DNA from: a virus
IMG/VR virus record: IMGVR_UViG_3300018868_001080
Direction: 5' to 3' (one strand)
DNA: 64,000 nt
Each line of letters starts with the position of its first letter. Within the stretch, counting starts at the first letter, position 1. Below, piece by piece: positions 4,242-50,265 of this stretch. The translations under genes and the position numbers were made by a program. The notes beneath the pieces are model-generated. The model was not told where the DNA came from. It searched no databases and saw only the letters and a list, made by a program, of their open reading frames with translations.

Positions 4242-5063
4242 TTATTTGATGGGGTAGCGCCTATTGTATTCCTCGAATAACCAAGGCTGGCCACCTGCAA
4301 AATGTCTGTAGATTATATTATTTGGATCGGCATGCACAATATCATATGTGTTGGGCTTTGTTGGTGTGAACGTTTTATCGCCTGTCTCGTCCAATAGATG
4401 TGTAACGTTCCATTCTGTTGGCAGTATATCAACATTCTCAAGCAATTCGTCCAGCGACAGAACAGTTTTTTCAGTTACTTCAGAATGCAGACCGTTGTTA
4501 GGTAGATCATAGAAAGGCGTCCAGCTATGAGGTTTTATGCCAGCATGCACATAGTATGCCTGCTGATCACCATGATAAAAGGTTCTCTTTTCATTAAAAT
4601 GTTCGTTCCAAATTTTAAAATCTTTGTTTTCATAGAATTTCTCTCTTGAAGTAATCAGATTGATTAGCTTGCGGGTGAATGGCGAGATTTTGAGAATAAA
4701 GAATCCAAAGCAATGTGTGTTGCCTGAATCAATTGCATAGGTGAAACTTTTCTTGGGCTCATAAAACTTATCGAGCTGAGCAATAAAAACGTCTGCATCA
4801 TATTGATATATAACATCACCATCCACAAGCTTGCCTGAGTCAACTAAATCTTTGAAAAGATACCACCTGTTGAAATGAAAATTATCACCAGGGTGAAGCT
4901 CTGGGAAGTAGATTTGTGGAGTAAAATTGGTTTGATTGATCTCAATATACTTTAACCCGTGCATCTCACAATATTTTCTATTGCGCGGCTCAATATACTT
5001 TCTGAATAAGTTTTCGCGTTCACCGTGCCATATAGCAAAATTTAAGAAATATTTCTTCATCAT
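4242..5063 (-). CDS. putative GT-A glycosyltransferase (GT34/GT8-like)
   Basis: YDADVFI (DxD), GDQQAY, LPTEWNV, RHFAGG. Confidence 0.65.
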   Translation of the reverse strand: MMKKYFLNFAIWHGERENLFRKYIEPRNRKYCEMHGLKYIEINQTNFTPQIYFPELHPGDNFHFNRWYLFKDLVDSGKLVDGDVIYQYDADVFIAQLDKFYEPKKSFTYAIDSGNTHCFGFFILKISPFTRKLINLITSREKFYENKDFKIWNEHFNEKRTFYHGDQQAYYVHAGIKPHSWTPFYDLPNNGLHSEVTEKTVLSLDELLENVDILPTEWNVTHLLDETGDKTFTPTKPNTYDIVHADPNNIIYRHFAGGQPWLFEEYNRRYPIK

Positions 5064-5066
5064 TCT

Positions 5067-5094
5067 AATATATACTATTAATTAGCTTTTGCAA
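5067..5094 (-). promoter_or_regulatory. sigma70-like promoter TTGCAA-N16-TATATT
   Basis: The -10 box ends 3 and 6 nt before the tandem ATGs at 5063 and 5060. Confidence 0.55.
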
Positions 5095-5903
5095 GTACTT
5101 GCGGCATCGAGAATTAATTTTTTATAATAATTGAAGTCTGATTTGTATGTTTCTTTTTTACTCACCTCAGCATACTTGGTCATGAGCAGCTCCGGTGTTA
5201 AATCTTCCCATGAGTTAATAAAAAGAATTGGGCAATCTTTAAAATAAACCACTGGTATATCTTTTAAAACAATGGGCACTGTTCCTACATACATTGACTC
5301 CCAGATTCTATGACAGTCAACACTGTTTCCTGGTGGTGAAATAACATACTTGTATGTGCTTAGTTTGCGCAAATAGTCTTCAAAGCTATGCTTATGAAAA
5401 TCGAAATCGATAAAATCGTAATGTTTGATCTTCTGTATTGCATGAGACCTCTCATTGGGATTTGTGTTGGGATCAAAGTTACAGTAAACAAGATTCTTTT
5501 TACTATTGTTCTCATTAATTATTTTTAATATTGTTTCTTTGTTACCGTGAGGCCAAACTTCATTTGCCATACCTATGGGTATGGTTTGTAATTTATTGTG
5601 CATAACATGGCAATTCATGCCAAACCATTTGACGAGATGCGGGTTGTTGAGAATCGATAGATGTTCTGTTGTGACTGGTGCATCTGCATCATGCGTAATC
5701 AAGACAAACGGGTAATTAATGTTGGGTAAATTTTCTCTTGCAAATAGAGAAATGTTATCACCATGAAGAAAAATAATATTTTCGTCAGGGTTGTATGTAA
5801 TTTTCTTACCATATCTAGATATGTAGTTGCTTGCAAGGCTCAACAACTTATCTGGTGTAATTATAAAATCTGTATTATTCACTTTTCTTAATAAACTCTT
5901 CAA
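5082..5903 (-). CDS. exostosin-like (GT47-type) glycosyltransferase
   Basis: YKYVISPPGNSVDCHRIWESMYVGTVPIV. Confidence 0.75.
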   Translation of the reverse strand: MKSLLRKVNNTDFIITPDKLLSLASNYISRYGKKITYNPDENIIFLHGDNISLFARENLPNINYPFVLITHDADAPVTTEHLSILNNPHLVKWFGMNCHVMHNKLQTIPIGMANEVWPHGNKETILKIINENNSKKNLVYCNFDPNTNPNERSHAIQKIKHYDFIDFDFHKHSFEDYLRKLSTYKYVISPPGNSVDCHRIWESMYVGTVPIVLKDIPVVYFKDCPILFINSWEDLTPELLMTKYAEVSKKETYKSDFNYYKKLILDAASTCKS

Positions 5904-6792
5904 TGCATTTCTTATTATGCATGTGTAGGTTGAAGATAGGAATCTTCTTATCCTTATAAATCACATAGGGTTTCTTATCAAATCCTACTGAGATGCTTTT
6001 CTCGATGAGCTCCTTGCCAACATAGTGACGGTATTCCACATAGCCTGGTGGATGGTTTTGATTAGTACCACCGAGAAACATGCCATAGGGATTAGGATCA
6101 AAAAGCATCTGCATTTCGTTAAAATTTTCAGAAAACGGTCCTGATGGCACACATGGTAGCATTTTATAATTTTTTCCGTATTTGTAGATTAAGTCGAGCA
6201 AGGCCATGTCTGTAATCCAGCTATAAAAATGCCCAACATGACTGCGTAGAGCTTCCTCACCTTTCTTGATGAGCTTCACATGAAGGTCCAGAAGTGTCTG
6301 TGCTGCTGCACTATCTTTTACAAAGATACAGCATGGTGCAGAAGCGGACGGCGCTTCATTGCAAAATCCAAACTCACCTGGTTTAAAAAATTTGCTTATG
6401 TTTGAAATATCATCAAATATAAGATTGTCACCTTCCAGATGCAGAGTATCTTTGAGGTCTCTTTTGATGATAAAAATGAGAAATAGGAATACACGAATTG
6501 TTGTGTTGAACCAGAATGCATCAGTCATATACCTGGGCCATTTTGTTTTAAATATATGAATAATTTCTTTATACTCCTCTGTCTGAAGCAGTGGTTCCAC
6601 ATCCACAGAATTTTCGTGCTTGTATTTTTCTTGTAAAATAATATATGCATTATCTGCATGTTTTTTATTAAAAGCAAGTGTCTGTTTGTAGTAATCAGGC
6701 AGAGAGGCAGGTGCGTAGATATTTTCCTCACTACTAGGAATACTGGTGGGTAGAAATGTTCTGTCTAGAAAGAACGAAACCAAATTACTCAT
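5875..6792 (-). CDS. putative glycosyltransferase
   Basis: LHLEGDNLIF, TDMALL, LFDP, FNLHMH; lies within the GT operon. Confidence 0.5.
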   Translation of the reverse strand: MSNLVSFFLDRTFLPTSIPSSEENIYAPASLPDYYKQTLAFNKKHADNAYIILQEKYKHENSVDVEPLLQTEEYKEIIHIFKTKWPRYMTDAFWFNTTIRVFLFLIFIIKRDLKDTLHLEGDNLIFDDISNISKFFKPGEFGFCNEAPSASAPCCIFVKDSAAAQTLLDLHVKLIKKGEEALRSHVGHFYSWITDMALLDLIYKYGKNYKMLPCVPSGPFSENFNEMQMLFDPNPYGMFLGGTNQNHPPGYVEYRHYVGKELIEKSISVGFDKKPYVIYKDKKIPIFNLHMHNKKCIEEFIKKSE

Positions 6793-7588
6793 ATTTTTTA
6801 GTAAAAAATGCCTTGGTCAGATCTTTTTTGTCATATTGATGCACAATGGCAAAAGGTTGTTGACCTGGCTTGGTAAGCAGATTGTTGCATATCCATTTTT
6901 CACTCAAATCATTTTTCTCATCAGCTGCAGACAGGTGTATTAAGAATTCATCTCCATGCGGGAGAATCTCTAGCTGCAGACTCTTCCTCACATATGTTAA
7001 GAGATTTAAAATAACTTGATCGTATGCAAAATAATTTCTTTGTGGTAGAATGATGCTCAGCTCTGTTGCAACTTGCTTTTGATAATCAATTAGCTTGTCA
7101 ATATTACCAATGGTAACGCCACAATTCAAAATCTTCTTGTCCTTTACCCCATCGTAACTCTCACTGTACCCGAACTTGTACCAAGTTGTGTTGGTGTCAC
7201 AGTCTCTAAAATAGTTTCGTTCTTCTGCAAGCACAGTGCTGTTTGCAGGGAATTTTTTTGCATATTCAACAAAGGGGTCTTTTTGAAAAATGACATCCAC
7301 ATCTGTCATCAAAGCTGTCTGACAATTCGTTTGTGCTTTGATCTCTTTCAAGAGAAGATAAAATACAATGGGTTTTAAATTGTACGGTGTGAGGCTTCTA
7401 ATATTATGTTTTTCGGCAAATTTATAGTAATTTATTATTTGTATCTTCTTTTGATCAATTGGCAGGCTCGAGCAATCCAGATCAGTTACAAGGAATAAAA
7501 CACCATCCACATTGTCATTAAAGCTCTTGAGAAATGGTTTCAAGTAGTTGTAGTTAAACCCCAGAGATAGTGCAATAGTACAATTCAT
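6785..7588 (-). CDS. GT-A fold glycosyltransferase
   Basis: TDVDVIFQKDPF, LNCGVTIG, DQVILN, VHQYDK. Confidence 0.75.
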   Translation of the reverse strand: MNCTIALSLGFNYNYLKPFLKSFNDNVDGVLFLVTDLDCSSLPIDQKKIQIINYYKFAEKHNIRSLTPYNLKPIVFYLLLKEIKAQTNCQTALMTDVDVIFQKDPFVEYAKKFPANSTVLAEERNYFRDCDTNTTWYKFGYSESYDGVKDKKILNCGVTIGNIDKLIDYQKQVATELSIILPQRNYFAYDQVILNLLTYVRKSLQLEILPHGDEFLIHLSAADEKNDLSEKWICNNLLTKPGQQPFAIVHQYDKKDLTKAFFTKKYE

Positions 7589-8448
7589 TGTGTTAGTTTA
7601 AAGTAGTGTTGCTCTAATTCAACTTCATTTTCAAAAGGTTGGTACCACCTGCAATTGTTTACTGTGGGTCGCTTCTCCAGAACATTGAACACATAATTCC
7701 ACCAAATACGATTGACAATAGGGTCGCGTCTAAATACATCTTCAGTATAATAATTTTCAACAAATGCTTTGTCACTGGAACAACCATCATGATTTATATG
7801 AAAGGAAACAAAAGGTAATTTGTTTAGATTCTTGCATTTACACAAGCAATTGAGCATGGTGAAGAAATATGTATCCCAATAATTGTGACCAAGTATGAAC
7901 TGTTTAAGAGATTTTGTTACACGCTTCCATGTGCTGTTTTTAATTGCAAAAGCATCAAACCCGTGCACTGAGTATGCATCTGCAACAGGTGTATCGTCAA
8001 GTGATTTAATATTGCTAATGCAGGCTTTGCTTGAGGGATAACACTCATACTCTGCAGTAATGTGCTTGATGAACCTATCAGAAATTATTATGTCACTGTT
8101 TGTGAATAAGAAATAGTCACTATCAATATCTGACATGACATCAAATATTTCATTTACAATTGGTAATTCTCTCTTGTTGTTGTTGATATCATTTTCTCTC
8201 AAACTATACTCTTGTGATAGATGGGCTTGTTTAAAATACTCCTTTACAACTGCATTTGACTTCTTTTTTAATTTGTTGATGGTAATGAATCCATCATAAA
8301 CTAATTGATCTTCTTGAAACGTTATTATATACAGTTCAACGTTTTTAAATTTTTGCTTTAATTTTTGCAAGCTCTCAATGCACAGCATTTCACGATGATT
8401 CAATCTATCGTAAGGCTTGAAAGCATTTATACCAATTGCAATTTTCAT
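7585..8448 (-). CDS. putative GT-A glycosyltransferase
   Basis: YFLFTNSDII, GFDAFAI, LGHNYWD. Confidence 0.6.
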   Translation of the reverse strand: MKIAIGINAFKPYDRLNHREMLCIESLQKLKQKFKNVELYIITFQEDQLVYDGFITINKLKKKSNAVVKEYFKQAHLSQEYSLRENDINNNKRELPIVNEIFDVMSDIDSDYFLFTNSDIIISDRFIKHITAEYECYPSSKACISNIKSLDDTPVADAYSVHGFDAFAIKNSTWKRVTKSLKQFILGHNYWDTYFFTMLNCLCKCKNLNKLPFVSFHINHDGCSSDKAFVENYYTEDVFRRDPIVNRIWWNYVFNVLEKRPTVNNCRWYQPFENEVELEQHYFKLTQ

Positions 8449-9227: not shown

Positions 9228-9988
9228 AATGATTTAAAATATTCAATAACCTTATCCAAGCCATCATATGGCTGACCAGGGTCTGTAACATCAATATTAT
9301 ATTTTTGTTTGAATCTATCCACACCATTTCTAAAATTCTTCATCCAATCACCTTTCCTTATGGTAGATTTATCATGATGGTAGTCTTGATCAACAATGTA
9401 TTGGTTGCTGTTCTCTAGGTCAATGAACCAACGGAACGGTGGGTGGTATCCATGCCTTATAGCATTCATGGTATGATCCACATGCTCCATGGCATTGACA
9501 TATTGCTCATCCATCAATCCTATTTGGTCAAAGACTGATTTGTGGTAATAACTGCATGCTCCATACACATTAAAATACAGAGCCACTCTTTGTCCTCGTA
9601 TTTCAAAGATTTTGCGGGGGATTGGCACATTGTTCTGTTTGTTATCTTGACCATGTAAGCAGTAGTTAAAATGCTTCACTCTGGTCTTTTTGCTTGCTGC
9701 AACATATGCAGCAAATGCATTGTCAAGAAAAACAACATCATCCTCCACAAGAAAAATGTGATCGCAACCTTTTGCCAAGAGAAATTCTATGGCTTTGTTC
9801 TTTGACTTGCCAACACCTAGATTCACTTCATTATTAATAATATGCATACCTGGTTGCATAATTTTATCAAATCCATCATTAACAACAACTAATTCATCAT
9901 ACCAATCTGGCTTGAGACTTTTGATGCATTCTCTAAGAAATGATGGCCGATCACAAGTGATAACACCTATCCCAGTTTTTTCTTTCAT
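9224..9988 (-). CDS. GT2-family glycosyltransferase
   Basis: VVVNDG, NLGVGKSKN, HIFLVEDD, IGLMDE. Confidence 0.85.
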   Translation of the reverse strand: MKEKTGIGVITCDRPSFLRECIKSLKPDWYDELVVVNDGFDKIMQPGMHIINNEVNLGVGKSKNKAIEFLLAKGCDHIFLVEDDVVFLDNAFAAYVAASKKTRVKHFNYCLHGQDNKQNNVPIPRKIFEIRGQRVALYFNVYGACSYYHKSVFDQIGLMDEQYVNAMEHVDHTMNAIRHGYHPPFRWFIDLENSNQYIVDQDYHHDKSTIRKGDWMKNFRNGVDRFKQKYNIDVTDPGQPYDGLDKVIEYFKSL

Positions 9989-9995
9989 CTCTTGT

Positions 9996-10023
9996 ATTGT
10001 ATATTAAATAATAGAGATGTCAA
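9996..10023 (-). promoter_or_regulatory. sigma70-like promoter TTGACA-N16-TACAAT for the GT operon
   Basis: Perfect -35 box; the -10 box ends 7 nt before ATG 9988. Confidence 0.75.
10005..10010 (+). promoter_or_regulatory. T4-type late promoter core TAAATA
   Basis: 6 nt before ATG 10017. Confidence 0.6.
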
Positions 10024-11500: not shown

Positions 11501-11715
11501 TTGTTTTTGGAGTGAAAGTGCAGAGCTTTGGATATTTTATCCAAGATTACTTTGGGGCTGTGCCCTTCGCCCATGAGTCTGTTAAATTCTAGTTTGAATG
11601 CTTTAATAAATTCACTGGATAGCTGCAGATTGCGTGGATAAAATAACCGTCTCTTGAAGGTGATGGAACCGTAGCCCTCAAACAGGGCAGCAAATTTCTT
11701 GTTGAAACGGCTCAC
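11497..11715 (-). CDS. small late protein with capsid-targeting-like N-terminus
   Basis: TAAATA 5 nt before GTG; begins MSRFNKKFAALFE. Confidence 0.55.
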   Translation of the reverse strand: MSRFNKKFAALFEGYGSITFKRRLFYPRNLQLSSEFIKAFKLEFNRLMGEGHSPKVILDKISKALHFHSKNN

Positions 11716-11723
11716 ACATATAT

Positions 11724-12470
11724 TTATCTTTTGGGTATGATAAGATTGCTGTAAAAGGATTTTTCATGCTTCTCTTTTTCAGATATCTGTTTCTGTGTGT
11801 TAATCAACTCCTCCATTTGCGAGGATGCTTGTATATCACTGATTACACTCTGATCTTCACCAATTAGATCGCCGTTCACATTGAGGTAATACCTCACCAA
11901 TTGTATTCTTTCCTCAGGCTTGCCAAAAATTTCCACTATGCCAGGTGAATCATCCTTGGGAAAAAACACAGACACACCTGTTTTTTGAATTTGTTGCACA
12001 ATGGTTTTGAATATGTTGTCTATTTCTTTGATGTAGACTTCATCTATCTCGCGCTTGTCATCTTGCACAACGGGCACAGGTGCTACACGTGTTATAGGTG
12101 TGAAGAATATGATGTCCAGATAGCGCATAGACTCACGCACCAACGGTATGCACTTGTCAATGAATTTGTCATCAAATTTATCGGGAGTCTTGCTGTTGCC
12201 CCAAAGAGAGTATATGATGTTATCCAAGGGACAACGGTCAAATATGATTTTGCTTCCCCTTTCACAATTTTTCTGCATGTCATCAATCATGCAGTTTAGT
12301 ATCTTCCACTGCAGATCTGGTGTGGATTCCTTGCTATGGGGTGCCTTCTCTTGCTTCAATATTTTTCTGTAACTTGAATCAATCTGTTTGTAGGATGGCC
12401 ATTCCTTTATGAAATCATTTATGAAGGTTGTTTTGCCTTGACAAGCGGATCCAGATACAGCAATTCTCAT
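11724..12470 (-). CDS. P-loop kinase (nucleotide kinase/AAA_28-like)
   Basis: MRIAVSGSACQGKTT and IIFDRCPLD; start placed at ATG 12470, 5 nt after a promoter. Confidence 0.7.
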   Translation of the reverse strand: MRIAVSGSACQGKTTFINDFIKEWPSYKQIDSSYRKILKQEKAPHSKESTPDLQWKILNCMIDDMQKNCERGSKIIFDRCPLDNIIYSLWGNSKTPDKFDDKFIDKCIPLVRESMRYLDIIFFTPITRVAPVPVVQDDKREIDEVYIKEIDNIFKTIVQQIQKTGVSVFFPKDDSPGIVEIFGKPEERIQLVRYYLNVNGDLIGEDQSVISDIQASSQMEELINTQKQISEKEKHEKSFYSNLIIPKR

Positions 12471-12475
12471 AACAT

Positions 12476-12503
12476 ATTTTACAGTTAATTTCAATATTTG
12501 CAA
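12476..12503 (-). promoter_or_regulatory. sigma70-like promoter TTGCAA-N16-TAAAAT
   Basis: 5 nt before ATG 12470. Confidence 0.6.
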
Positions 12504-12524
12504 GCCTGCTTAAATAACATTATT

Positions 12525-13973
12525 ATGTGCGGTTTTCTAGTAACAAACAAGCCAGTGTCAGATGCAGAATTGGACCATGCAAATTTTTATATCAAATTCA
12601 GGGGGCCTGATCATACCGAGAAAACAAAAATAGAAAATATTAGCTTCATACACAACCTGCTCAGTCTCACAGGAGAATTTAGACCCCAGCCAATTTTTAA
12701 AGATAATATAGCTGTGGTCTATAACGGTGAAATTTATAATTTTAAGGAATTAGATAAAGATGCAAAATCAGACGGTGATGTAATTATTCCACTGTACAAA
12801 GAATATGGTGCCAATTTTCTTGATAAACTTGATGGTGAGTTCTCCATAGTGCTTATTGATTTTAATACAAACAAAGCAATATTAGCTGTTGACACCTTTG
12901 AAACAAAACCTCTGTATGTTGCACACAAGGGCCCATACTTTGGTGCTGCATCTCTGAGAAGCGGTTTAGTAAGGCTGGGATTCAAACATATAAGAGAATT
13001 GAGATGCAATACAGGTATAATATATAATATAAAGTCACTAGCAGTTGAGGACATATTTGAAATACATAAGTTTGATGTTGAAAATGAGCACAAGAAAACC
13101 TTTGATGATTGGCATAATGCCTTTGAAGCAGCAGTTTTGAAGCGGCTAAAATATGTGGATCTTAAGAAAACTGGAGTTGGTCTGCACTTAAGTGAGGGTC
13201 ATGACAGTGGCTCTATTGCAGCGTGCCTTAAAAAATACAACCTTTCGGATGATATCTTAATACATTCTTTCATAACACAGGATATGCATCCTGAAGTCTT
13301 GAGGTGGAGACATGGGCTTGATCAGGATACTTTGCCAAAGAATGGCAGTGGAGAAATTTTTAAATCTCCAAATTTTAAACGATCCATACTTGATAGTATA
13401 AGAGAGGAGGATTTTGTTTTGAGCAATATTTTATATAAGAAAAGAGTTGAGGATTTTGATTATTTTACAATGACACCCGAAGCAAAGCTGGAAGTAAGAA
13501 ATTCCTACTATCATTTCACAAGAAATATGTACCATCTTATATACAGAGCTAGATTGAAACATAGTTGCAGAATAGGGCTGGGTGGTTATGGTGGTGATGG
13601 TGTGTCAAGTGCGTGGGTAAATAAAATTTATAAGAAATATGGAAGCATATGGCCTATTATTAATTTCAGGGATAACTCGATGTATCTATCAGATATAATA
13701 GCAGGTTCTCTGGGAGTTGAAGTAAGAAACCCTTACATGGATAAAGCATTATGGCAGGAGTCTTTCTGGATGGATAAATCTGTCTATAGAAATGAAAACA
13801 ATAATCATAAACCACCATTGCATGACTATCTTGAGAAAGAGAAATTTCCATTTTATAAGAGAGATAAAAACAACGATATAGAGTTCTTCTGGATTGGATT
13901 CGGTAATTTTCTGAACTTTAACTCAGTACATAAAGACCCTATTTATGTACCGCAACCTGATATTACACTTTAA
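12525..13973 (+). CDS. asparagine synthetase B-like amidotransferase
   Basis: Ntn N-terminus MCG, RGPD, YNGEIYN, LSEGHDS (PP-loop), GYGGD, EVRNPY; TAAATA at 12511-12516. Confidence 0.8.
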   Translation: MCGFLVTNKPVSDAELDHANFYIKFRGPDHTEKTKIENISFIHNLLSLTGEFRPQPIFKDNIAVVYNGEIYNFKELDKDAKSDGDVIIPLYKEYGANFLDKLDGEFSIVLIDFNTNKAILAVDTFETKPLYVAHKGPYFGAASLRSGLVRLGFKHIRELRCNTGIIYNIKSLAVEDIFEIHKFDVENEHKKTFDDWHNAFEAAVLKRLKYVDLKKTGVGLHLSEGHDSGSIAACLKKYNLSDDILIHSFITQDMHPEVLRWRHGLDQDTLPKNGSGEIFKSPNFKRSILDSIREEDFVLSNILYKKRVEDFDYFTMTPEAKLEVRNSYYHFTRNMYHLIYRARLKHSCRIGLGGYGGDGVSSAWVNKIYKKYGSIWPIINFRDNSMYLSDIIAGSLGVEVRNPYMDKALWQESFWMDKSVYRNENNNHKPPLHDYLEKEKFPFYKRDKNNDIEFFWIGFGNFLNFNSVHKDPIYVPQPDITL

Positions 13974-14715: not shown

Positions 14716-14721
14716 ATGTTT

Positions 14722-14749
14722 ATAATAAATTATATTTCTTTGTTTTCAA
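14722..14749 (-). promoter_or_regulatory. sigma70-like promoter TTGAAA-N16-TATTAT
   Basis: 6 nt before the queE ATG. Confidence 0.6.
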
Positions 14750-14818
14750 CTGGTTTCCTTGTTCAATATTATAATATATATGCCTCAAAAGAATGTTGCA
14801 CAGAATAAATAATTACAG

Positions 14819-16400: not shown

Positions 16401-16406
16401 ATTTGA

Positions 16407-17913: not shown

Positions 17914-17931
17914 TGACTATAATATTTATTA

Positions 17932-39750: not shown

Positions 39751-39774
39751 TTAATTGATATTTTCTTTTATCAT
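39747..39774 (+). promoter_or_regulatory. sigma70-like promoter TTGATT-N16-TATCAT
   Basis: 7 nt before the gp41 ATG. Confidence 0.6.
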
Positions 39775-39781
39775 ATAAATT

Positions 39782-41116
39782 ATGCAAGAGCACGCTTTAG
39801 ACCTGGATTTCTTTGAGCATGTATTTCTATACAAATCACTCACCGACGAAAAGTTTTTAGGCTCAATAGTGGACATTGTCAAGCCTGCTTTCTTCAAAGA
39901 CAGAAACATCAAAAGTATTTTCAGCATCATTAAAGAATTTTACGTTAAAAATACTACTGTACCCACATTAACTGAGATCAAGGCTTATCTGAGTACTGAC
40001 AAGCTTAAGGAGAGCTTCAAAGAAGCCATTTCAAAATTTAAAGACATTGACAAGAATTTTAATGAAGAAGAGCTCTATCGTAATGCTGAAAGATTTCTGA
40101 GAGAAAAAGCTGTGTACACAACCATGCTGGAGGTAGCAGACAAGTGTTCAAAGGGCGAAATTAATACAGCAGAAATTCTGGAGAAGTTCGATACTTCATG
40201 CAGTATTAATTTGGCCATGGACCTCGGCATAGAGATATTAACTGATTCACAGCTTATCATAGACGATTTGAATAAAGTTGAAAGCTTCATCTCCACCGGG
40301 TATCCCTGGATTGATCAACGCATAGGTGGTGGGTTACAGCAGAACGGCAGATCATTGTATGTCTTTGCAGGTGAAACAAACATAGGCAAATCAATCTTCC
40401 TGGCTAATGTAGCTACAAACATTGCCAAGCAAAACAAAACTGTGTTATTAATTTCTCTTGAAATGCCAGAACTCATATATGCCAAGAGGCTTTCTTCTAA
40501 TATTACTAAGATTCCAATCTTTAGACTGAAGGGCGAGCAAGATCAACTCAAGATTGGGCTAGATGAATTTAACAAAAAGAACCCTAGTGCAAGAATTTAT
40601 GTGAAAGAGTTCCCCCCATCCACAATATCACCTTTGCAGCTGAATGCTTTTATAAAGAAGTTTATTGCCAAGGGCATCAAAGTGGATGCTATTGTACTTG
40701 ATTATCTTAACCTTATTCATTCACCGACTGGTACTAATTCATATGAAAGAGTAAAATATGTTACTGAAAAAGTACGTGCCATGTCCTATGTTTTTAATTG
40801 CCCCATCATCTCTGCTACTCAATTGAATCGCTCTGGATATAATGAATCTGACCCTTCCATTGCCACTATCAGTGAGAGCATAGGGTTAGCTGCAACTGCA
40901 GATGTTGTCATGAGTATTTTTCAGACAGATGAGGAGAGGGAGCTGGGTGTTATTCACTTGGGCATGATGAAGAATCGATTTGGACCAAATTTCGGTAATA
41001 TTCTGCTGCGAGTAGATTATCCAACACTGACAATAACACAAGATGACAACATCAATGATACAGATGAGAGCAACTCGCTCACATCAACACTCAAGGCACT
41101 AGCAGATAACAATTGA
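39782..41116 (+). CDS. gp41: replicative DnaB-like helicase
   Basis: GETNIGKS, ISLEM, VKEFP, LDYLNL, SATQLNR, KNRFG. Confidence 0.95.
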   Translation: MQEHALDLDFFEHVFLYKSLTDEKFLGSIVDIVKPAFFKDRNIKSIFSIIKEFYVKNTTVPTLTEIKAYLSTDKLKESFKEAISKFKDIDKNFNEEELYRNAERFLREKAVYTTMLEVADKCSKGEINTAEILEKFDTSCSINLAMDLGIEILTDSQLIIDDLNKVESFISTGYPWIDQRIGGGLQQNGRSLYVFAGETNIGKSIFLANVATNIAKQNKTVLLISLEMPELIYAKRLSSNITKIPIFRLKGEQDQLKIGLDEFNKKNPSARIYVKEFPPSTISPLQLNAFIKKFIAKGIKVDAIVLDYLNLIHSPTGTNSYERVKYVTEKVRAMSYVFNCPIISATQLNRSGYNESDPSIATISESIGLAATADVVMSIFQTDEERELGVIHLGMMKNRFGPNFGNILLRVDYPTLTITQDDNINDTDESNSLTSTLKALADNN

Positions 41117-41147
41117 TTATTTATAGATTTTCCTAAATACTCATAGA

Positions 41148-42026
41148 ATGCAAGACAAGTACTGCTTTGTTGTACCGTCCAATATAGAGGCGGCCAGCTG
41201 TGTATTGGCCTTTCTATGGCTTACCAAGAAAGATGATGTTACAACCATTGTGTCCAGTGAGAACAACCTACAGAACGATCTCAAAAAAATTAAATTGGAT
41301 GCATTCAAGTTTGTGTATATTGTTGGCTTCTATGATTTTAAGGGTCTAGATCAACTGTACAATCGTAAAAACATATACGTCATTAATAAAAAACTTACTA
41401 ATGTGCCAGACTTTGAGTTGACCCACTTTCTCTCTGGTGGTAACACTACTTTAGACTTGATAATTAACATGCTGCAGAAACATACCCAAGACAAACTAAG
41501 CAACAATCAAGAGATCTTTCTTGACAACATCAGACGGTACTTGACATTCACATTTGAAAATGATCTTACTCCATTAAAGCTATTTTACTACTTCAAAACA
41601 CAACCCGACATGAACAAGGTGGATGCATTCATACGCAAATTTCATGCCGGGTTAATATTGTTCAACGAAACAGAGAACTACAAGATTAGCATATTGCTCA
41701 AGGAGCTGGCCATAACACTCAAATCATTGAAGCTGTTCAAAGGCACTGTGAGCCACAACAACATCACATACAATGTAGTTTCCACTTTTAGCTCCAAATT
41801 TAAGAATGAAGTTGCTCACAAGATTCTCAAGAAAGGTGTGGACATCTCACTTGTGTTGGATCTGGAAAAACGAACAGCACATTTTCGCAAGAACAAAGAC
41901 ATTGACATTGACTTAGGCAATTTCGTGCATAAATGCTTTTCAGGATATGGAACTGAACATGCAGCATTTTGCAAGCTCAATGAGCAAATCATTGACTTAA
42001 CAAAGAATTTCTTCCCCATTACATGA
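41148..42026 (+). CDS. degenerate DHH/DHHA1-like protein
   Basis: C-terminal FRKNKDIDIDLG...GYGTEHAAF resembles DHHA1; catalytic motifs absent. Confidence 0.45.
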   Translation: MQDKYCFVVPSNIEAASCVLAFLWLTKKDDVTTIVSSENNLQNDLKKIKLDAFKFVYIVGFYDFKGLDQLYNRKNIYVINKKLTNVPDFELTHFLSGGNTTLDLIINMLQKHTQDKLSNNQEIFLDNIRRYLTFTFENDLTPLKLFYYFKTQPDMNKVDAFIRKFHAGLILFNETENYKISILLKELAITLKSLKLFKGTVSHNNITYNVVSTFSSKFKNEVAHKILKKGVDISLVLDLEKRTAHFRKNKDIDIDLGNFVHKCFSGYGTEHAAFCKLNEQIIDLTKNFFPIT

Positions 42027-42313
42027 ACATCAAAGAACTCAACCCTTCGTTTAAAATGGTTGAGTCTGAAACAATGCACAACTTCTTATCTTTTTGCACC
42101 TTCATATACCTAATAAATGGTAAAAAACTTAACTTGGCAAATATCTTTCTGCTATGCCTAAAGAATGAAAACATTAAGAAACTATACAAAAGAATATTAG
42201 AAGTGGATAATGATTATTATGCCTTTAAAATGTTCTTTGAATTTGATCCTACACTGTACAAGAGTAAATACATAATGAAGTTTTTAAGCAACAGAGAAAA
42301 ATATGAGAAATAA
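42023..42313 (+). CDS. hypothetical protein
   Basis: ATGA overlap with the upstream gene. Confidence 0.6.
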   Translation: MNIKELNPSFKMVESETMHNFLSFCTFIYLINGKKLNLANIFLLCLKNENIKKLYKRILEVDNDYYAFKMFFEFDPTLYKSKYIMKFLSNREKYEK

Positions 42314-42506
42314 CGCCGAAGTAAAATTAGAGTCAAAGAAATCCTCTAGCAAAGAATATTTTGATAAAAAGCTAAATATCTTTTCCAAGTCAGTTAAGAA
42401 AAGTGGTGTGCTAGAAGATTTAAAATGGAAACGATGCTTCTACAAGCCATCAATGCTCAAGAAGTTGAAGAAGAAGAATGCGCACTTGAAGTGGAAATTT
42501 TATTGA
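42303..42506 (+). CDS. rpsU: ribosomal protein bS21
   Basis: 67 aa, basic; FSKSVKKSGVLEDLKWKRCFYKPS aligns by eye with the bS21 core FKRxxxKAGVLxExRxREFYEKP. Confidence 0.82.
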   Translation: MRNNAEVKLESKKSSSKEYFDKKLNIFSKSVKKSGVLEDLKWKRCFYKPSMLKKLKKKNAHLKWKFY

Positions 42507-43138
42507 TGTTAAGTGATTTCGAGAAATTCCTTTACAACAAATACTTGAGCTGCACTAAAAAAGCACAAAACAAACCCTATACTCTTCGAAAAGATTTTTC
42601 CAATATTGACAGCTCTACGGCCTTCTATCTGAAGAAGTTGGGCCTTTTTTTCAACAAATTCAAGCAAATCAAAATTGATGATTTTTTTGGAGCCCCTTTT
42701 GGTTTGCACAAGGATGAAAAATACATTGATTTGAAGTTCTACATTTCACCCAAAGCTGTAAACATGTACAACATGTATAAGAAACAAAAAGAAACACAAG
42801 ACCCCGACACTACTGACAATCTAAAACACACAGCATCTGCATTAAAATTTATTAAAAACTATTGCTCTGTCCACAACATACACATCAAAGACTATCTCAA
42901 TTTTACTGAACATACAAATAGCCTGCCAGCATTTGTAGGACATCTGCAATCGCATGATGTTAACTTTTACTCACTGATGGGATTTAATAATTTTATGAAA
43001 CTATTGACACAAAATTTTGAAACCCACAAATTTGTGCTTGGTGATGTGCTTGACAACATGCATGAGATATACAGCAATTTTGTGCGATCTAAAAAATTAA
43101 AAGTTTTAGTAAGAGAAGGCATTAAGAAAATTGCTTGA
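42506..43138 (+). CDS. hypothetical protein, possibly gp59-like helicase loader
   Basis: About 210 aa immediately upstream of gp32 (T4 synteny only); TGATG overlap sets the start. Confidence 0.35.
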   Translation: MLSDFEKFLYNKYLSCTKKAQNKPYTLRKDFSNIDSSTAFYLKKLGLFFNKFKQIKIDDFFGAPFGLHKDEKYIDLKFYISPKAVNMYNMYKKQKETQDPDTTDNLKHTASALKFIKNYCSVHNIHIKDYLNFTEHTNSLPAFVGHLQSHDVNFYSLMGFNNFMKLLTQNFETHKFVLGDVLDNMHEIYSNFVRSKKLKVLVREGIKKIA

Positions 43139-43162
43139 TATATTATACTCTTCCTATATTAT
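43135..43162 (+). promoter_or_regulatory. sigma70-like promoter TTGATA-N16-TATTAT
   Basis: 8 nt before ATG 43171. Confidence 0.55.
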
Positions 43163-43170
43163 ATTTAAAT

Positions 43171-44019
43171 ATGAATGACATCACCAAATCAATGTTTGAG
43201 AGTATTAAAACGGCACTAGTTCGTCAAGACAATGGCAATTCCTCCTATCGCGACATCCTCAGGATGGAAGCAGATAAGACGTACGTAGTACGCTTGCTGC
43301 CCAACATCAAGGATCCTGCCAAGACTTTCTTCCACTTCTATCAACATGCTTTCAATAGCTTTGCAACAGGCAAGTTCATGTCTGTGGTTTCACCTTCATC
43401 CTTTGGAGAAAGAGATCCCATCTCTGAACTCAAGTACAAATTAATACGCACAGGATCTGATGAAGAAAAGAAGAAGGCAGCCACTCTTGCGTGGTCTGAG
43501 CGTTGGCTAGTGAATGCATACATTGTTGATGACCCTACTAATCCTGATAACAACGGCAAGGTTAAGATTCTACAGTTTGGCAAGCAATTGCACAAGATTA
43601 TCATGCGTGCTATTGATGGTGATGACGCAGATGATCTTGGTGTAAAAGTATTCTCACTCAAAGCTGATGGTGTTAATCTCAAGATTACTTGTGAGACCCA
43701 GGGCGGGTTCAAGACGTACACTTCCTCCAAGTTCTCCATGCCAAGGGCCATTGATGGTGTAACTGATAAGAACATTGATGAAATTCTTGGCACCATGCAT
43801 GACTTGGAGAAAATTAACCCAGTCAAATCCTATGATGATCTCAAGAAGATTCTGGATGAGCATTTTCTCTGTGTTGAGTCTGCAGATAATGTGACACAAG
43901 AAGTTGCAGTCAAGCCAATGGAGAGACAATCAATTGTCACAGCTGCTAGCACCTCAAAGCCTTCTGCAGCAGTTGATGATGATGAGGTCAAGAGATTACT
44001 TGACGGATTAGATGAATAA
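43171..44019 (+). CDS. gp32: single-stranded DNA-binding protein
   Basis: VVRLLP, DDPTNPDNNGKVKILQFGK, YTSSKF, acidic C-terminal tail. Confidence 0.9.
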   Translation: MNDITKSMFESIKTALVRQDNGNSSYRDILRMEADKTYVVRLLPNIKDPAKTFFHFYQHAFNSFATGKFMSVVSPSSFGERDPISELKYKLIRTGSDEEKKKAATLAWSERWLVNAYIVDDPTNPDNNGKVKILQFGKQLHKIIMRAIDGDDADDLGVKVFSLKADGVNLKITCETQGGFKTYTSSKFSMPRAIDGVTDKNIDEILGTMHDLEKINPVKSYDDLKKILDEHFLCVESADNVTQEVAVKPMERQSIVTAASTSKPSAAVDDDEVKRLLDGLDE

Positions 44020-44440
44020 AACACCTCAAGAAGAGTATCTTGAAAAAGTAGAACTGATCAAGTTCTTTGGAGCCGTAAAAGGTTCCTTGAATGAGATCAA
44101 CACCAAGGTTGTGGAAGGTAGCAATCTGCGGTCCGATCTGGATATTAAAAAGCTGGCCCTGGACCACGACAAAGCCATGGGCACACCACAAGCTGCAGAA
44201 CCACAATCTCAATTGCAGCTTGTGCACGGAGACTCTAGCAATAATTTTGTGCAGGCACCTATTGCTATTGAAACTATTTCACATGATGATCCCAACCAAT
44301 TAACATTGCCATTTGACAAGAAATACAGTCTGAATGACATTTTTGCAAAAATTGATGACATGTACAGAAAAGTTATTCTTCTGGAGAATCAAGTTTATAA
44401 ATTGCAGCAACTAGTTGAGAATAAAAAAAAAGAACTATAA
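44012..44440 (+). CDS. hypothetical protein
   Basis: ORF between gp32 and gp45. Confidence 0.6.
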   Translation: MNKTPQEEYLEKVELIKFFGAVKGSLNEINTKVVEGSNLRSDLDIKKLALDHDKAMGTPQAAEPQSQLQLVHGDSSNNFVQAPIAIETISHDDPNQLTLPFDKKYSLNDIFAKIDDMYRKVILLENQVYKLQQLVENKKKEL

Positions 44441-44449
44441 TATATCAAA

Positions 44450-45190
44450 ATGGTTCTCAAGATTTACAACCTAAAAGCCTTTAACAACGGGTTTTTGTAT
44501 AACATATCCAAACTAACCGATAGCTGCATCTTACGATTTGAAAAGAATGAAGTGTCTTGCATTGCAAGTAACAATGACAACACTGTAGTTTATTACAGTT
44601 CTTCCAATCAGGATACACCCTTTATAAATGACAACCTAGTCACACTCAACATACCAGACGTTAAGAAGTTGATAAAAATATTCTCTTGCATTGAGGATAA
44701 TAATATTCAATTGGCTGTTGAAAACAATAACATATCCTTTGCAAACAACTCTTTCAAATTCAAGTACCATCTGCTAGAAGATGGTATCATTGTCATACCA
44801 AAGATAAACATTTCAAAGATATTTGCCCTACAGTTCAACACCACTTTCAAAATTAAAAAGAATGAGCTTCAAAATATTCTCAAGGCAAGCACCATTGCAT
44901 TGGATGTTACAAAGCTATATCTATACAGTGATGACACAGGCATCTTTTGTGATTTTACTGACAACAACAGACACAACATTGATAGTATTGCTCTGAAGAT
45001 AACGGATACTTTTGAAGGTGAAAAGATCAAGCAACCTGTGCCTATTAACTTTGAGATTGTGAGATTGATATCATCTTCAAAATCTAACGCGCTAAACATC
45101 AATTACAACAACAGCCTCGGGGTGTTTCTCTTTGATCTTGAGGAACAAGGGCACACCTGTAAATATGTTGTGTCAGCGCTTGTAAACTGA
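44450..45190 (+). CDS. gp45: DNA polymerase sliding clamp
   Basis: 246 aa, PCNA/gp45-like pattern (LNIPDVKKL, FKYHL, KYVVS); replication context. Confidence 0.75.
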   Translation: MVLKIYNLKAFNNGFLYNISKLTDSCILRFEKNEVSCIASNNDNTVVYYSSSNQDTPFINDNLVTLNIPDVKKLIKIFSCIEDNNIQLAVENNNISFANNSFKFKYHLLEDGIIVIPKINISKIFALQFNTTFKIKKNELQNILKASTIALDVTKLYLYSDDTGIFCDFTDNNRHNIDSIALKITDTFEGEKIKQPVPINFEIVRLISSSKSNALNINYNNSLGVFLFDLEEQGHTCKYVVSALVN

Positions 45191-45927: not shown

Positions 45928-46296
45928 ATGAAATTAGTTAAAAATAAAATTCGCACTGCAGGTTACTTTATCAAGAGATTGAGAGATAATGGGTTTATCG
46001 TACTTAAGATGTTCTTTAGATATGGTAAACACGATGCACGTCGCTGGACTGTGTTAGTTGATCCAAGTGGCGCATCAGTGTTCATTACTTGTTATGAGAA
46101 CAAGGACTTTATGAATGAAATTATGTTTGAGTTTAATGATGGTGGCGTAAAGTTTCCTAAGAACTTTAGTATTAAAACCGATTCATTGGAAGTTATCATA
46201 CATCACTTGATTACAAGTGGTGTATGCAATGAATACCCCACAAGTTTATATCACAAGAAACCAATAAATATTGTTGATGAAGAAGAGGAAAGATAA
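45928..46296 (+). CDS. hypothetical protein
   Basis: Start at MKLVKNK, 4 nt after the remnant's stop codon. Confidence 0.6.
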   Translation: MKLVKNKIRTAGYFIKRLRDNGFIVLKMFFRYGKHDARRWTVLVDPSGASVFITCYENKDFMNEIMFEFNDGGVKFPKNFSIKTDSLEVIIHHLITSGVCNEYPTSLYHKKPINIVDEEEER

Positions 46297-47982: not shown

Positions 47983-48010
47983 TTGTTTTCTCTTAAACTT
48001 CATACATAAT
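47983..48010 (+). promoter_or_regulatory. sigma70-like promoter TTGTTT-N16-CATAAT
   Basis: 6 nt before the primase GTG. Confidence 0.45.
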
Positions 48011-48016
48011 ACATGT

Positions 48017-49060
48017 GTGATACTATTACCTGAGGAGTTCATTGTAACTAAATTCTTACAACATGCAGGTTACGCAAAGTATAAGCGGTTAGCTAATGTG
48101 TATGAAGGTGGCTGTCCCATGTGCAGGGAGGGCAAGAGCTGGGGAAGCAAGCGTAGGTTATTTTACCTACCAAAAAAGAAAGTTATATGCTGTCACAATT
48201 GTGGTTGGTACAGCACACCTTTAACTTGGATAAAGAAAGTTAGTGGTGCAGATGATATTGAGATTATAAGAGAAATAAAGGGATTCAGCTATAACATTGT
48301 GCAGGATTTATCCAAACAGAGTGAGGAACCAAAAAAAGAGATTATCAGAAGCACCTTGCCAGACAACTGCATAAATTTAAATGACCCCTCGCAAACAAAT
48401 TTCTATAAGAATGAAAAGGTTGTGCAGCTTGCATTAGCTTATGTCAAAGAAAGAAGACTCAATACTTGCATTAACGCACCACCAACGTTCTATGTGTCAT
48501 TGACAGATGTTGTGCACAAGAACAGACTTGTCATACCTTTCTTCTATAATAAAGAAATTATCTTCTATCAAACACGCACCCTGCTACAAGCAGACAACAA
48601 GACCAAACCCAAGTACCTCTCCAAGATTTCTGGTGAGAAGTCTTTGTTCAACATTGATAATGTGAAGGATGACTTGGATTGCATCTTTATTTTTGAGGGT
48701 CCCATTGATTCGTGTTTTGTCAAGAATGGGGTGAGCGTTACTGGCATTCAGGAACGAAGCAAGCAAACGTTCAATGAGCTACAAAAGAAGCAACTGGATC
48801 AATACAAGTTCCACAAGCGTATTTTTGTGCTTGATTCACAATGGCAAGATGAAGCAAGCATGAGAAAGACCAGAATTTTATTACAACAAAACGAATGTGT
48901 GTTCATATGGCCAGAGAAGCTGGGCAAAAAATTTAAAGATTTTAATGACATATGCATGCACACACAACGAGATTTCATCAAGCCAGAGATTGTGCTGAAC
49001 CATGCTTTTGATGGCGTGAAGGGGTTAGTACAATTAAGCAGAATTAAGCGTTATCGTTAG
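48017..49060 (+). CDS. gp61: DNA primase
   Basis: CPMC...CHNCG zinc finger, RLVIPF, PKYL, FEGPIDS TOPRIM, KDFND. Confidence 0.93.
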   Translation: MILLPEEFIVTKFLQHAGYAKYKRLANVYEGGCPMCREGKSWGSKRRLFYLPKKKVICCHNCGWYSTPLTWIKKVSGADDIEIIREIKGFSYNIVQDLSKQSEEPKKEIIRSTLPDNCINLNDPSQTNFYKNEKVVQLALAYVKERRLNTCINAPPTFYVSLTDVVHKNRLVIPFFYNKEIIFYQTRTLLQADNKTKPKYLSKISGEKSLFNIDNVKDDLDCIFIFEGPIDSCFVKNGVSVTGIQERSKQTFNELQKKQLDQYKFHKRIFVLDSQWQDEASMRKTRILLQQNECVFIWPEKLGKKFKDFNDICMHTQRDFIKPEIVLNHAFDGVKGLVQLSRIKRYR

Positions 49061-49460: not shown

Positions 49461-49468
49461 AATTACAT

Positions 49469-49478
49469 TAAATATTTA
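49469..49478. promoter_or_regulatory. bidirectional late promoter TAAATATTTA
   Basis: Palindrome between divergent starts at 49460 and 49480. Confidence 0.6.
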
Positions 49479-49479
49479 T

Positions 49480-49848
49480 ATGATCTCGTTCAAAAAAATG
49501 TGTGAAGATGCACAAATGTATTCGGGTGACCGATATGTTGCAGGCATAGCTTCACGTGAGCTCAAGTCAAACCCCATTAGCATAGCAGATTTGTATGGTA
49601 ATCAAGATCAATACCCAAATAAGCAGAATATTGCACGTGTTACTCCTTCAGAATTAACAAACATATTAGATTTACTTGGCCAATTGTATTTGATCTGCGA
49701 GAATCTATTCACCAAATACAACTTGGCATTGGGCAACCCCACAATCAAGAACAAATTGCTTCTGAAGTTGGCGCTGTTGATTGTCAGAAAAATGTATGCT
49801 GCAACTAAGAAATTAGCAAACATTACGAGAAAAGTAGTTGATAGTTAA
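49480..49848 (+). CDS. hypothetical late protein
   Basis: ATG 5 nt after TAAATA; begins MISFKKMCE. Confidence 0.55.
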   Translation: MISFKKMCEDAQMYSGDRYVAGIASRELKSNPISIADLYGNQDQYPNKQNIARVTPSELTNILDLLGQLYLICENLFTKYNLALGNPTIKNKLLLKLALLIVRKMYAATKKLANITRKVVDS

Positions 49849-49865
49849 TGTATTTCCGTTACCAT
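49838..49865 (+). promoter_or_regulatory. sigma70-like promoter TTGATA-N16-TACCAT
   Basis: 7 nt before GTG 49873. Confidence 0.55.
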
Positions 49866-49872
49866 ATGTCTT

Positions 49873-50265
49873 GTGATTAGTATTATCAAGAGCATCATGA
49901 CAACGCTTGTTGTCAGCACAGCCATCACAATCTTGCTGCTTCCCATACAGCCACATTATGTCACCGGTTTCCTACTAACAACCATCATACAGTTTATTGT
50001 TTTTTATGTAGTAGGCAGTGTCATGGAGTTTATTGGTGAATTGAAATTGAAAGAGATAAATGCTTTCAAGTTGCAAGAACTTTCAAGACAGAGCATGGAG
50101 GTGGTGTGTCCCTGTTTCAAGAAGATCAAAGAAATCATACCCATTGATTTGAACTCTAAGAATTCTTACAGGTGCAATGATTGTGGCAAGACCAACAGCA
50201 TTGTTATTACTGCAGAAACTGCACATACTACAGAGCCAATTAGTGGTTTTGAGCCACCTGTATGA
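49873..50265 (+). CDS. predicted membrane protein with C-terminal Zn ribbon
   Basis: Two hydrophobic N-terminal segments; CPC...CNDC. Confidence 0.6.
   Translation: MISIIKSIMTTLVVSTAITILLLPIQPHYVTGFLLTTIIQFIVFYVVGSVMEFIGELKLKEINAFKLQELSRQSMEVVCPCFKKIKEIIPIDLNSKNSYRCNDCGKTNSIVITAETAHTTEPISGFEPPV

Follow-up and report, generated by a model that had tools for sequence, protein, structure and literature searches.

Where does a message begin relative to its start codon in a T4-type phage whose genes show no Shine-Dalgarno (SD) sequence? This question is raised by a 64,000-nucleotide (nt) stretch of viral DNA (IMG/VR record IMGVR_UViG_3300018868_001080; hereafter the window), in which sigma70-like promoters and T4-type late promoter boxes stand directly before start codons. 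We consider it likely that promoters placed on the start codon give leaderless mRNAs for the leading genes and that the downstream genes are coupled to their predecessors, again with no SD sequence. Most messages would probably begin at the start codon itself.

The window has a G+C content of approximately 38% and a T4-type content of replication and virion genes, including gp43, gp41, gp32, uvsX, uvsY, gp46/47, primase, gp55, large terminase (TerL), tail sheath, and tail tube. It also contains the 7-deazaguanine genes folE, queD, queE, and queC and a glycan island. No close cultured relative was found, and gp43, gp41, TerL, sheath, QueC, and QueE all gave identities below 41%. The gp43, gp41, TerL, and sheath proteins were at most 30–38% identical to those of cyanophage, Campylobacter, rhizobial, or enterobacterial T4-like phages. 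In IMG/VR, 19 contigs related to the window were found with gp43 identities of 57–92%. The window is part of a deep-branching uncultured T4-like phage. Genome-wide counts were made on a complete relative, G001 (217,413 bp, rated 100% complete, approximately 79% DNA identity to the window), and identical scripts were run on the control phages T4, P-SSM2, Cr30, and HTVC008M and on cyanophage-like contigs.

An earlier note on this DNA had placed the pattern TTGnnn-N16-TAnnnT 5–8 nt before ATG or GTG at 13 starts, and a check of the coordinates found it at all 13. The weaker cases that the note had named at uvsY (26240), a gp45-like gene (44450), and the primase gene (48017) were also seen in the sequence, and one additional exact site precedes 7588 on the minus strand. 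The genes behind the noted starts were checked for identity and include those for a queE-like radical SAM protein, queD/PTPS, folE, gp41 helicase, gp32 single-stranded DNA-binding protein, and gp43 polymerase. We call these sigma70-like sites near a start E-type. The spacer is the number of nt between the -35 and -10 elements, and the offset is the number of nt between the end of the box and the start codon. Each line below gives the -35 element, the spacer, the -10 hexamer, the offset, and the start codon with its position.

5058..5094, minus strand: E-type TTGCAA-16-TATATT-6-ATG(5060), with a tandem ATG at 5063.
7586..7622, minus strand: E-type TTGAAT-16-TAAACT-6-ATG(7588), the site additional to the earlier note.
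9986..10023, minus strand: E-type TTGACA-16-TACAAT-7-ATG(9988), GT2 glycosyltransferase; the -35 element lies within the divergent gene starting at 10017.
12468..12503, minus strand: E-type TTGCAA-16-TAAAAT-5-ATG(12470), AAA_28/dNK-like kinase.
14713..14749, minus strand: E-type TTGAAA-16-TATTAT-6-ATG(14715), queE-like radical SAM protein.
16398..16434, minus strand: E-type TTGATT-16-TATAAT-6-ATG(16400), queD/PTPS.
17932..17968, plus strand: E-type TTGAAT-16-TATATT-6-ATG(17966), folE GTP cyclohydrolase I.
25452..25489, minus strand: E-type TTGAGT-16-TATACT-7-ATG(25454), 188-amino-acid protein of unknown function.
26206..26242, plus strand: weaker E-type TTTAAT-16-TATAAT-6-ATG(26240), uvsY.
32280..32315, plus strand: E-type TTGAAT-16-TAATAT-5-ATG(32313), glycosyltransferase.
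33525..33561, plus strand: E-type TTGTAA-16-TATTAT-6-GTG(33559), gp43 DNA polymerase.
36132..36168, plus strand: E-type TTGATT-16-TAAAAT-6-ATG(36166), 127-amino-acid protein at the head of the uvsX operon.
39747..39784, plus strand: E-type TTGATT-16-TATCAT-7-ATG(39782), gp41 helicase.
43135..43173, plus strand: E-type TTGATA-16-TATTAT-8-ATG(43171), gp32 single-stranded DNA-binding protein; the -35 element overlaps the preceding TGA stop.
44415..44452, plus strand: weaker E-type TTGAGA-15-TATAAT-8-ATG or, equally, TTGAGA-17-TAATAT-6-ATG at 44450, putative gp45.
47983..48019, plus strand: weaker E-type TTGTTT-16-CATAAT-6-GTG(48017), DNA primase.
49838..49875, plus strand: E-type TTGATA-16-TACCAT-7-GTG(49873), 130-amino-acid protein of unknown function.

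The gene at 44450 gave no profile match, and its gp45 label was not confirmed. At the 13 noted starts, the offset was 5 at 12470 and 32313; 6 at 5060, 14715, 16400, 17966, 33559, and 36166; 7 at 9988, 25454, 39782, and 49873; and 8 at 43171. The spacer was 16 in 14 of the 14 exact sites. Spacers of 13–20 and offsets of 0–30 were scored as a grid over 81 window open reading frame (ORF) starts. The cell with spacer 16 and offset 6 contained 6 sites and that with spacer 16 and offset 7 contained 4, whereas the remaining cells contained 0–1 each. When the 60 nt upstream of each start were shuffled, the mean was 0.18 and the maximum was 3, compared with 10 observed (80 starts; Poisson P approximately 1e-14), which bears out the positional signal described in the earlier note. 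The loose TTG-TA pattern was not over-represented in the window as a whole (98 sites at spacer 16 versus 59–89 at other spacers). These results indicate that the pattern is distinguished by where it stands with respect to start codons.

The earlier note had ascribed the abutted layout to early and middle genes. Those genes do show it, but it is not special to them, because the late genes are arranged likewise. T4-type late boxes near a start (L-type; wwTAAATA or TAAGTA) were found before approximately 21 further window starts at offsets of 4–9, with a mode of 5. No conserved sequence was found further upstream of these boxes, that is, they have no -35 element. In the shuffle test of the window, 16 L-type sites were observed versus 1.26. 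The sites are listed below as box, offset, and start codon.

10003..10019, plus strand: L-type ATTAAATA-6-ATG(10017), in a 28-nt intergenic region common with the divergent E-type site of 9988.
11713..11728, minus strand: L-type GATAAATA-5-GTG(11715).
12509..12527, plus strand: L-type CTTAAATA-8-ATG(12525).
14804..14821, plus strand: L-type AATAAATA-7-ATG(14819), PhoH-like.
17911..17930, minus strand: L-type AATAAATA-9-ATG(17913).
19310..19326, minus strand: L-type AGTAAGTA-6-ATG(19312).
22483..22498, minus strand: L-type AATAAATA-5-GTG(22485).
22697..22712, minus strand: L-type CTTAAGTA-5-ATG(22699).
22760..22775, plus strand: L-type CATAAATA-5-ATG(22773).
24874..24889, minus strand: L-type AATAAATA-5-GTG(24876).
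25905..25919, minus strand: L-type ATTAAGTA-4-ATG(25907).
41132..41150, plus strand: L-type CCTAAATA-8-ATG(41148).
46263..46279, plus strand: L-type AATAAATA-6-ATG(46277).
49467..49482, plus strand: L-type ATTAAATA-5-ATG(49480).
52024..52039, minus strand: L-type CTTAAATA-5-ATG(52026), immediately behind a GC-rich hairpin and T-run.
53000..53020, both strands: overlapping divergent L-type pair, CATAAATA-5-ATG(53002, minus) and TATAAGTA-8-ATG(53018, plus, large terminase).
55347..55365, plus strand: L-type TATAAATA-8-ATG(55363), tail sheath.
57675..57690, plus strand: L-type AATAAATA-5-ATG(57688), tail tube.
58249..58265, plus strand: L-type ATTAAATA-6-ATG(58263).
60079..60095, plus strand: L-type TTTAAATA-6-ATG(60093).
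60865..60886, plus strand: looser L-type AATAAGTA-11-ATG(60884).

Three of these places are laid out very tightly. At 9986–10023, the minus-strand E-type promoter and the plus-strand late box each reach into the coding sequence of the opposite gene, so that an early and a late gene diverge. In the minus-strand stretch 52026–52075, terminator, promoter, and start adjoin with no base to spare. The 15-nt gap at 53000–53020, between a gene of unknown function (53002, minus strand) and the large terminase gene (53018, plus strand), contains a compact late promoter that points both ways.

The two types divide by gene function. E-type sites head replication, nucleotide and metabolic (deazaguanine), and glycan genes, and L-type boxes head the terminase, sheath, tube, and hub genes along with others. 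In our comparison, this division matches the temporal classes of T4. The window also encodes the sigma factor that would read the TAAATA boxes:

27986..28552, plus strand: gp55-type late sigma factor, probable start ATG 28046 (phrog_234, E 2e-24).

As in T4-type phages, this gene adjoins gp47/gp46. It is the sole sigma-like gene in G001, where a sigma region 2 match was found at the orthologous place. The gp55 gene itself has no abutting box; its ATG at 28046 lies within the 3′ end of the upstream helicase gene, with an A-rich stretch before it.

The offsets can be compared with known promoter geometry. The sigma70 -10 hexamer occupies positions -12 to -7 and hence ends six bases before the transcription start (+1). 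The T4 late box occupies positions -13 to -6 and hence leaves five bases (PMC2988020). The modal offset observed here was 6 with the -10 hexamer and 5 with the late box; given the known geometry, the first base of the start codon would be +1 with either promoter type. A translation signal would have no reason to track this one-base difference. The divergent start codons of 53002/53018 and 9988/10017 are separated by only 15 and 28 nt, respectively, which leaves no room for a leader. The promoter-abutted starts of G001 were ATG or GTG in 95 of 95 cases (79 ATG, 16 GTG, and 0 TTG, with the first start called), and its anchored site collection contained a single TTG start. An ATG or GTG start rule has been reported for leaderless initiation in mycobacteria (PMC4633059). 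The restriction of abutted starts to ATG and GTG fits both this rule and the purine preference of initiation.

We propose the following mechanism. The first gene of each transcription unit would carry its promoter set against the start codon. The sigma70-like element sTTGAww-N16-TAwwAT at an offset of 6 (5–8) would drive the replication, deazaguanine, and glycan genes, and the late box wwTAAATA at an offset of 5 (4–9) would drive the virion and other late genes. With either type, +1 would fall on the first base of the start codon or within approximately 2 nt of it, giving a leaderless mRNA. The ribosome would then load on the 5′-terminal AUG or GUG without SD contact. Downstream genes that overlap or touch the previous stop would probably be translated by coupling or re-initiation, again free of SD. 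The earlier suggestion that the replication and metabolic genes are read from leaderless mRNA gains support from the position and conservation of the promoters, the ATG/GTG starts, and an SD frequency at background.

The earlier note had also seen no room for a normal SD leader. GGAG, GAGG, or AGGA was found before 3 of 80 window starts, compared with 6% of random windows. In G001, SD-like motifs preceded 8% of starts, and the same caller gave 46% for T4, 46% for HTVC008M, 33% for Cr30, and 21% for P-SSM2. Base frequencies before the starts of the genes unmarked by a box showed no G-rich peak. Among the unmarked window genes that follow a gene on the same strand, 32 of 38 (84%) either run into the stop of that gene or are no more than 10 nt away from it; the corresponding number in G001 was 107 of 142. 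The 35 promoter-abutted genes (approximately 45%) and the 32 coupled genes together account for 67 of 77 window ORFs.

The missing SD sequence would also be expected if the A/T-rich boxes were not promoters but an RNA-level, non-SD signal for ribosome binding or translation enhancement (e.g., for bS1), comparable to the pre-start motifs of SD-poor bacteria. Chryseobacterium phage MA9V-3, an SD-free Bacteroidota phage, likewise has A-rich regions before its starts. We nevertheless consider this explanation very unlikely. The E-type sites require TTG at precisely 16 nt ahead of the -10 hexamer, approximately 35 nt before the start, where it has no role in translation, and the late box is the T4 late promoter in a phage that encodes a gp55 sigma. 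Moreover, the box types divide by gene function like temporal classes, and the coupled internal genes are entirely without boxes. Finally, TAAATA is under-represented in G001 (258 sites on both strands versus 375–562 for hexamers with comparable base composition), a rarity that would follow from the avoidance of stray promoters and that suggests selection against stray late promoters.

The arrangement is conserved across the lineage. In G001, E-type sites with spacer 16 and offset 6 were found at 18 starts, and TAARTA was found at 34 starts with offset 5 and at 14 starts with offset 6, compared with approximately 0.23 expected per cell. When alternative starts were allowed, 36 E-type and 74 L-type sites covered 40% of the ORFs. 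Viewed in reverse, 23 of 38 strong matches to the E-type consensus in G001 (61%) were followed by an ORF-opening ATG or GTG at 6–9 nt. For TAAATA hexamers and wATAAATA octamers, 30% and 50%, respectively, were followed by an ORF-opening start at 4–9 nt, versus only 6–8% for control hexamers of like composition. The consensus is sTTGAww-N16-TAwwAT, of which TTG was imposed by the search. The bases that were conserved without being imposed are A at position 4 of the -35 element (79–84%), A at position 5 of the -10 element (71–82%), and the C or G before TTG.

At orthologous sites of the window and G001, the boxes are kept and indels shift the offset within 5–8 only (7 to 6 at 39782 and 49873, 5 to 6 at 32313, and 6 to 8 at 17966). 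Changes at third codon positions start right behind the proposed start codons, which supports those start codons. In the clade with gp43 57–59% identical, 25 of 149 starts had a site with spacer 16 and offset 6–7, and the sequence between the boxes had diverged. The gp43 promoter itself (TTG-16-TAnnnT-6/7-start) is kept in most of 18 aligned loci (57–92% protein identity), with unrelated spacer sequences and a start codon that switches between GTG and ATG; locus L013 has a spacer of 17 and locus L009 an offset of 9.

The 16-nt spacer is a clade-wide property, and the earlier note had suggested that it marks the host sigma or a phage factor. A spacer nearly invariant at 16 across the clade, against the spacer of 17 and the leaders in cyanophage-like T4 contigs, could be the signature of an unrecognised phage factor, an analogue of MotA/AsiA, that reads the sigma70-like sites; the mRNAs would still be leaderless. 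The -35 consensus sTTGAtt also deviates from TTGACA, and the TTGCTT/TTGCTA of the gp43 promoter in the 57–59% clade recalls the core of the T4 MotA box. Such a factor is unlikely in our judgement, because G001 gave no match to MotA, for which the T4 positive control worked, and none to sigma region 4, gp55 being its only sigma-like gene. An AsiA search of G001, which had no positive control, found nothing. T4 middle promoters depend on MotA and AsiA and carry a MotA box approximately 12 nt before the -10 element, whereas the TTG hexamer is here spaced by 16, so that by our own reckoning from the T4 consensus the TTG lies approximately 2 nt upstream of the MotA-box position. A 16-nt spacer is also within the normal sigma70 range, and TTG-N19-TA is ordinary sigma70 geometry. 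The absence of sigma region 4 and MotA matches in G001 favours the host primary sigma, and the simplest reading is that it would recognise the sigma70-like sites.

Several points weigh against promoter-abutted, leaderless gene heads. The leaderless 5′ ends are predicted from promoter geometry alone, and they presuppose a host competent in the translation of leaderless mRNA. A search for RNA runs containing window positions 32001–42000 found none. The ORFs and starts came from our own greedy longest-ORF caller and not from a trained gene finder. A scan with the general sigma70 consensus was not discriminating (81 sites versus 62 in shuffles). In E. coli, GTG performs poorly as a leaderless start (PMC4633059). 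Intrinsic terminators were not enriched in the window (10 versus 13.9 in shuffles), and many abutted genes would therefore also be internal cistrons of read-through transcripts. Within these transcripts, such genes would lie 11–30 nt behind the preceding stop, and another SD-free mode of initiation would then have to work.

The terminator count is also what would be expected if the boxes were real promoters whose closeness to starts is a by-product of genome compaction, with translation mainly from read-through transcripts and the promoters serving chiefly the genes further on. The E- and L-type genes that follow a gene on the same strand do so with median gaps of only 14–30 nt, which is just promoter-sized, and several -35 elements or late boxes extend into the stop codon upstream. 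However, compaction alone would permit any offset, or promoters inside the upstream gene, whereas the observed offsets are sharply peaked at the values that set +1 on the start, with peaks one base apart for the two promoter types. The offsets outlast indels, and the abutted starts are ATG or GTG. In G001, 34 of 58 divergent gene heads, which have no source of same-strand read-through directly upstream, carry an abutting box. P-SSM2 and T4 are equally compact, yet they retain leaders of 10–30 nt. We consider compaction as the whole explanation quite unlikely and retain the reading of leaderless heads followed by coupled genes.

The window also encodes a ribosomal protein:

42303..42506, plus strand: ribosomal protein bS21, 67 amino acids, C-terminus KWKFY (PF01165, 33.4 bits).

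The upstream ORF runs into the bS21 start, and the protein is conserved in close relatives. Close to its end, the upstream ORF contains an ATG (42275) that is in frame and has a TAAATA box (42265) 4 nt ahead of it; bS21 appears to be expressed from this putative late box. The ATG at 42275 would open a leaderless mini-ORF of 12 codons whose stop overlaps the bS21 start; this arrangement is kept in G001, where the bS21 start is GTG. Among the five T4-like genomes compared, bS21 was found in two (this clade, represented by G001, and HTVC008M) and gave no match in T4, P-SSM2, or Cr30, and the same two have TAAATA 5 nt before starts. According to one proposal, phage-encoded bS21 biases ribosomes in favour of phage mRNAs late in infection (PMC9723584). 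The protein supports the anti-SD, and its loss eases the translation of the leaderless lambda cI mRNA (PMC10491246). A rather doubtful extension of our reading is that the lineage gave up SD initiation entirely and that the divergent phage bS21, made from a late box, replaces the host bS21 beside the anti-SD and retunes ribosomes to leaderless phage mRNAs, by which the phage would impose a preference for translating its own messages.

The presence of bS21 also bears on the host. Thermus, Deinococcus, and Corynebacterium belong to phyla known for abundant leaderless mRNAs. PF01165 found no match in control genomes of Thermus, Deinococcus, Corynebacterium, and Thermotoga. Because the phage has bS21 and these leaderless-rich control genomes gave no match, a host from the classic leaderless-rich phyla is unlikely. 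An actinobacterial or Deinococcus-Thermus host, with the layout as a copied host habit, was set aside on the same grounds and because SD is found on no gene. A Bacteroidota host, suggested by the missing SD and by the bS21 precedent, gained no support from either the promoter boxes or the single Bacteroidota phage in the comparison. No bS21 relatives were found in species genomes, and tblastn of bS21 against cultured phages gave no match. Compared with solved ribosomes, bS21 matched many bacteria weakly, with no preference for Flavobacterium. A search of species genomes with gp43 returned only two cyanophage-like contigs in metagenome-assembled genomes (32% identity), which were uninformative on the host, and the protein atlas placed bS21 and RmlD in viral clusters only. 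The closest cultured-virus homologues of QueE (13963–14715) are those of haloarchaeal tailed viruses (38–40%), with those of Cellulophaga and Chryseobacterium phages next (33%).

T4 serves as the textbook model of gene expression in phages, with leadered, SD-dependent mRNAs on whose leaders the repressors RegA, gp32, and gp43 act. A widespread uncultured T4-type lineage without room for leaders would have to regulate its replication genes differently and would depend on host ribosomes that accept 5′-terminal start codons. With its two promoter classes and phage bS21, it would be a natural system for studying how leaderless and coupled initiation can sustain an entire lytic programme of 217 kb. 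Given the lambda cI result, the link between bS21 and this layout is worth testing. For annotation, the promoter boxes would predict the true start codon in these phages better than SD-based gene finders, and the SD-free, sigma70-type signature narrows the search for the host.

The control phages bear out the contrast with T4 drawn in the earlier note. In the T4 late region, TAAATA lies 9–46 nt upstream, and 44 of 57 annotated starts have an SD-like motif. In P-SSM2, TAAATA is mostly 15–29 nt upstream (SD-like 21%), Cr30 has no TAAATA pattern (SD-like 33%), and the cyanophage-like contigs have spacer-17 promoters with leaders of 12–25 nt (SD-like 40%). In the same comparison, G001 had TAAATA at 5 nt before 31 starts, E-type sites at 6 nt before 18 starts, and SD-like motifs at 8%. 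Since T4, P-SSM2, and Cr30 appear leadered under the same scripts, the signal is not made by the pipeline. T4 late transcription, in which gp55, gp33, and the gp45 clamp act at TATAAATA at -13 to -6 (PMC2988020), shares with the window phage the box wwTAAATA, the lack of a -35 element, a gp55 gene beside gp47/gp46, and structural genes behind the boxes. It differs in that the T4 box lies 9–46 nt before the start and is accompanied by SD, whereas the window phage has a mode of 5 nt and SD at background.

HTVC008M, a cultured T4-like phage of Pelagibacter (SAR11) in Kyanoviridae (NC_020484.1), shares the late-type layout and bS21. Of its first 62 annotated starts, 9 have TAAATA at a distance of exactly 5 nt, as do 10 of the 175 starts called across the whole genome. 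HTVC008M differs in having 46% SD-like starts, no start-abutting sigma70-like promoter, and a polymerase of the cyanophage-like group that is approximately 30% identical. Its genes with TAAATA at 5 nt mostly lack the AAGGAG-type SD of its other genes, and its bS21 (65.7 bits) has an SD-like leader.

In Thermus thermophilus phage phiYS40 (Sevostyanova et al. 2007, as summarised in PMC3594737), most middle and late mRNAs are described as leaderless, with the promoter abutting the start codon, and a link to a phage-induced shift of the host translation apparatus is presumed. phiYS40 is similar in being a large lytic phage with promoter-abutted leaderless genes, and its evidence is experimental, whereas the window phage is known from sequence inference. 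The early genes are the exception in phiYS40, whereas sigma70-like and late classes both abut starts in the window phage. In addition, phiYS40 is not T4-like, and its host phylum, Deinococcus-Thermus, uses many leaderless mRNAs and gave no bS21 match in the control genomes.

In Deinococcus, a -10 box adjacent to ORFs is a proven mode of expression (PMC12340547). Deinococcus and mycobacteria resemble the window phage in that TANNNT approximately 6 nt before ATG or GTG leads to a leaderless mRNA, and TTG is not used (PMC12340547, PMC4633059). They are cellular genomes with strong SD on their leadered genes, whereas the window phage lacks SD altogether, has a clear -35 element at a fixed distance, and uses a second class of promoter, the late one.

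Bacteroidota use a -33/-7 promoter, TAnnTTTG, with SD-free leadered mRNAs, and 87% of the mRNAs of F. johnsoniae are leadered (PMC6847099). Bacteroidetes are the predicted hosts of freshwater phages that encode bS21 (PMC9723584). The window phage likewise lacks SD and encodes a bS21 whose C-terminus is aromatic. In contrast, its -10 boxes are TAwwAT without TTTG, and its bS21 is no closer to that of F. johnsoniae than to others. The mismatch to the Bacteroidota promoter that the earlier note had pointed out held throughout: none of the 14 window sites has TAnnTTTG, and the box is not followed by TG. In Chryseobacterium phage MA9V-3 (PV245944.1, 30001–80000), a repeated GTACCTTTA-like box (-7-type TAnnTTT) lies approximately 25–35 nt before many starts; its TAccTTTa-like boxes are followed by A-rich leaders of 25–30 nt, and 2 of 57 starts have an SD-like motif.

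No description of a leaderless architecture in T4-like phages or cyanophages was found in the literature searched. Promoter-abutted leaderless genes are already known from Deinococcus, mycobacteria, and phiYS40, and their predicted occurrence in a T4-type phage would be new.

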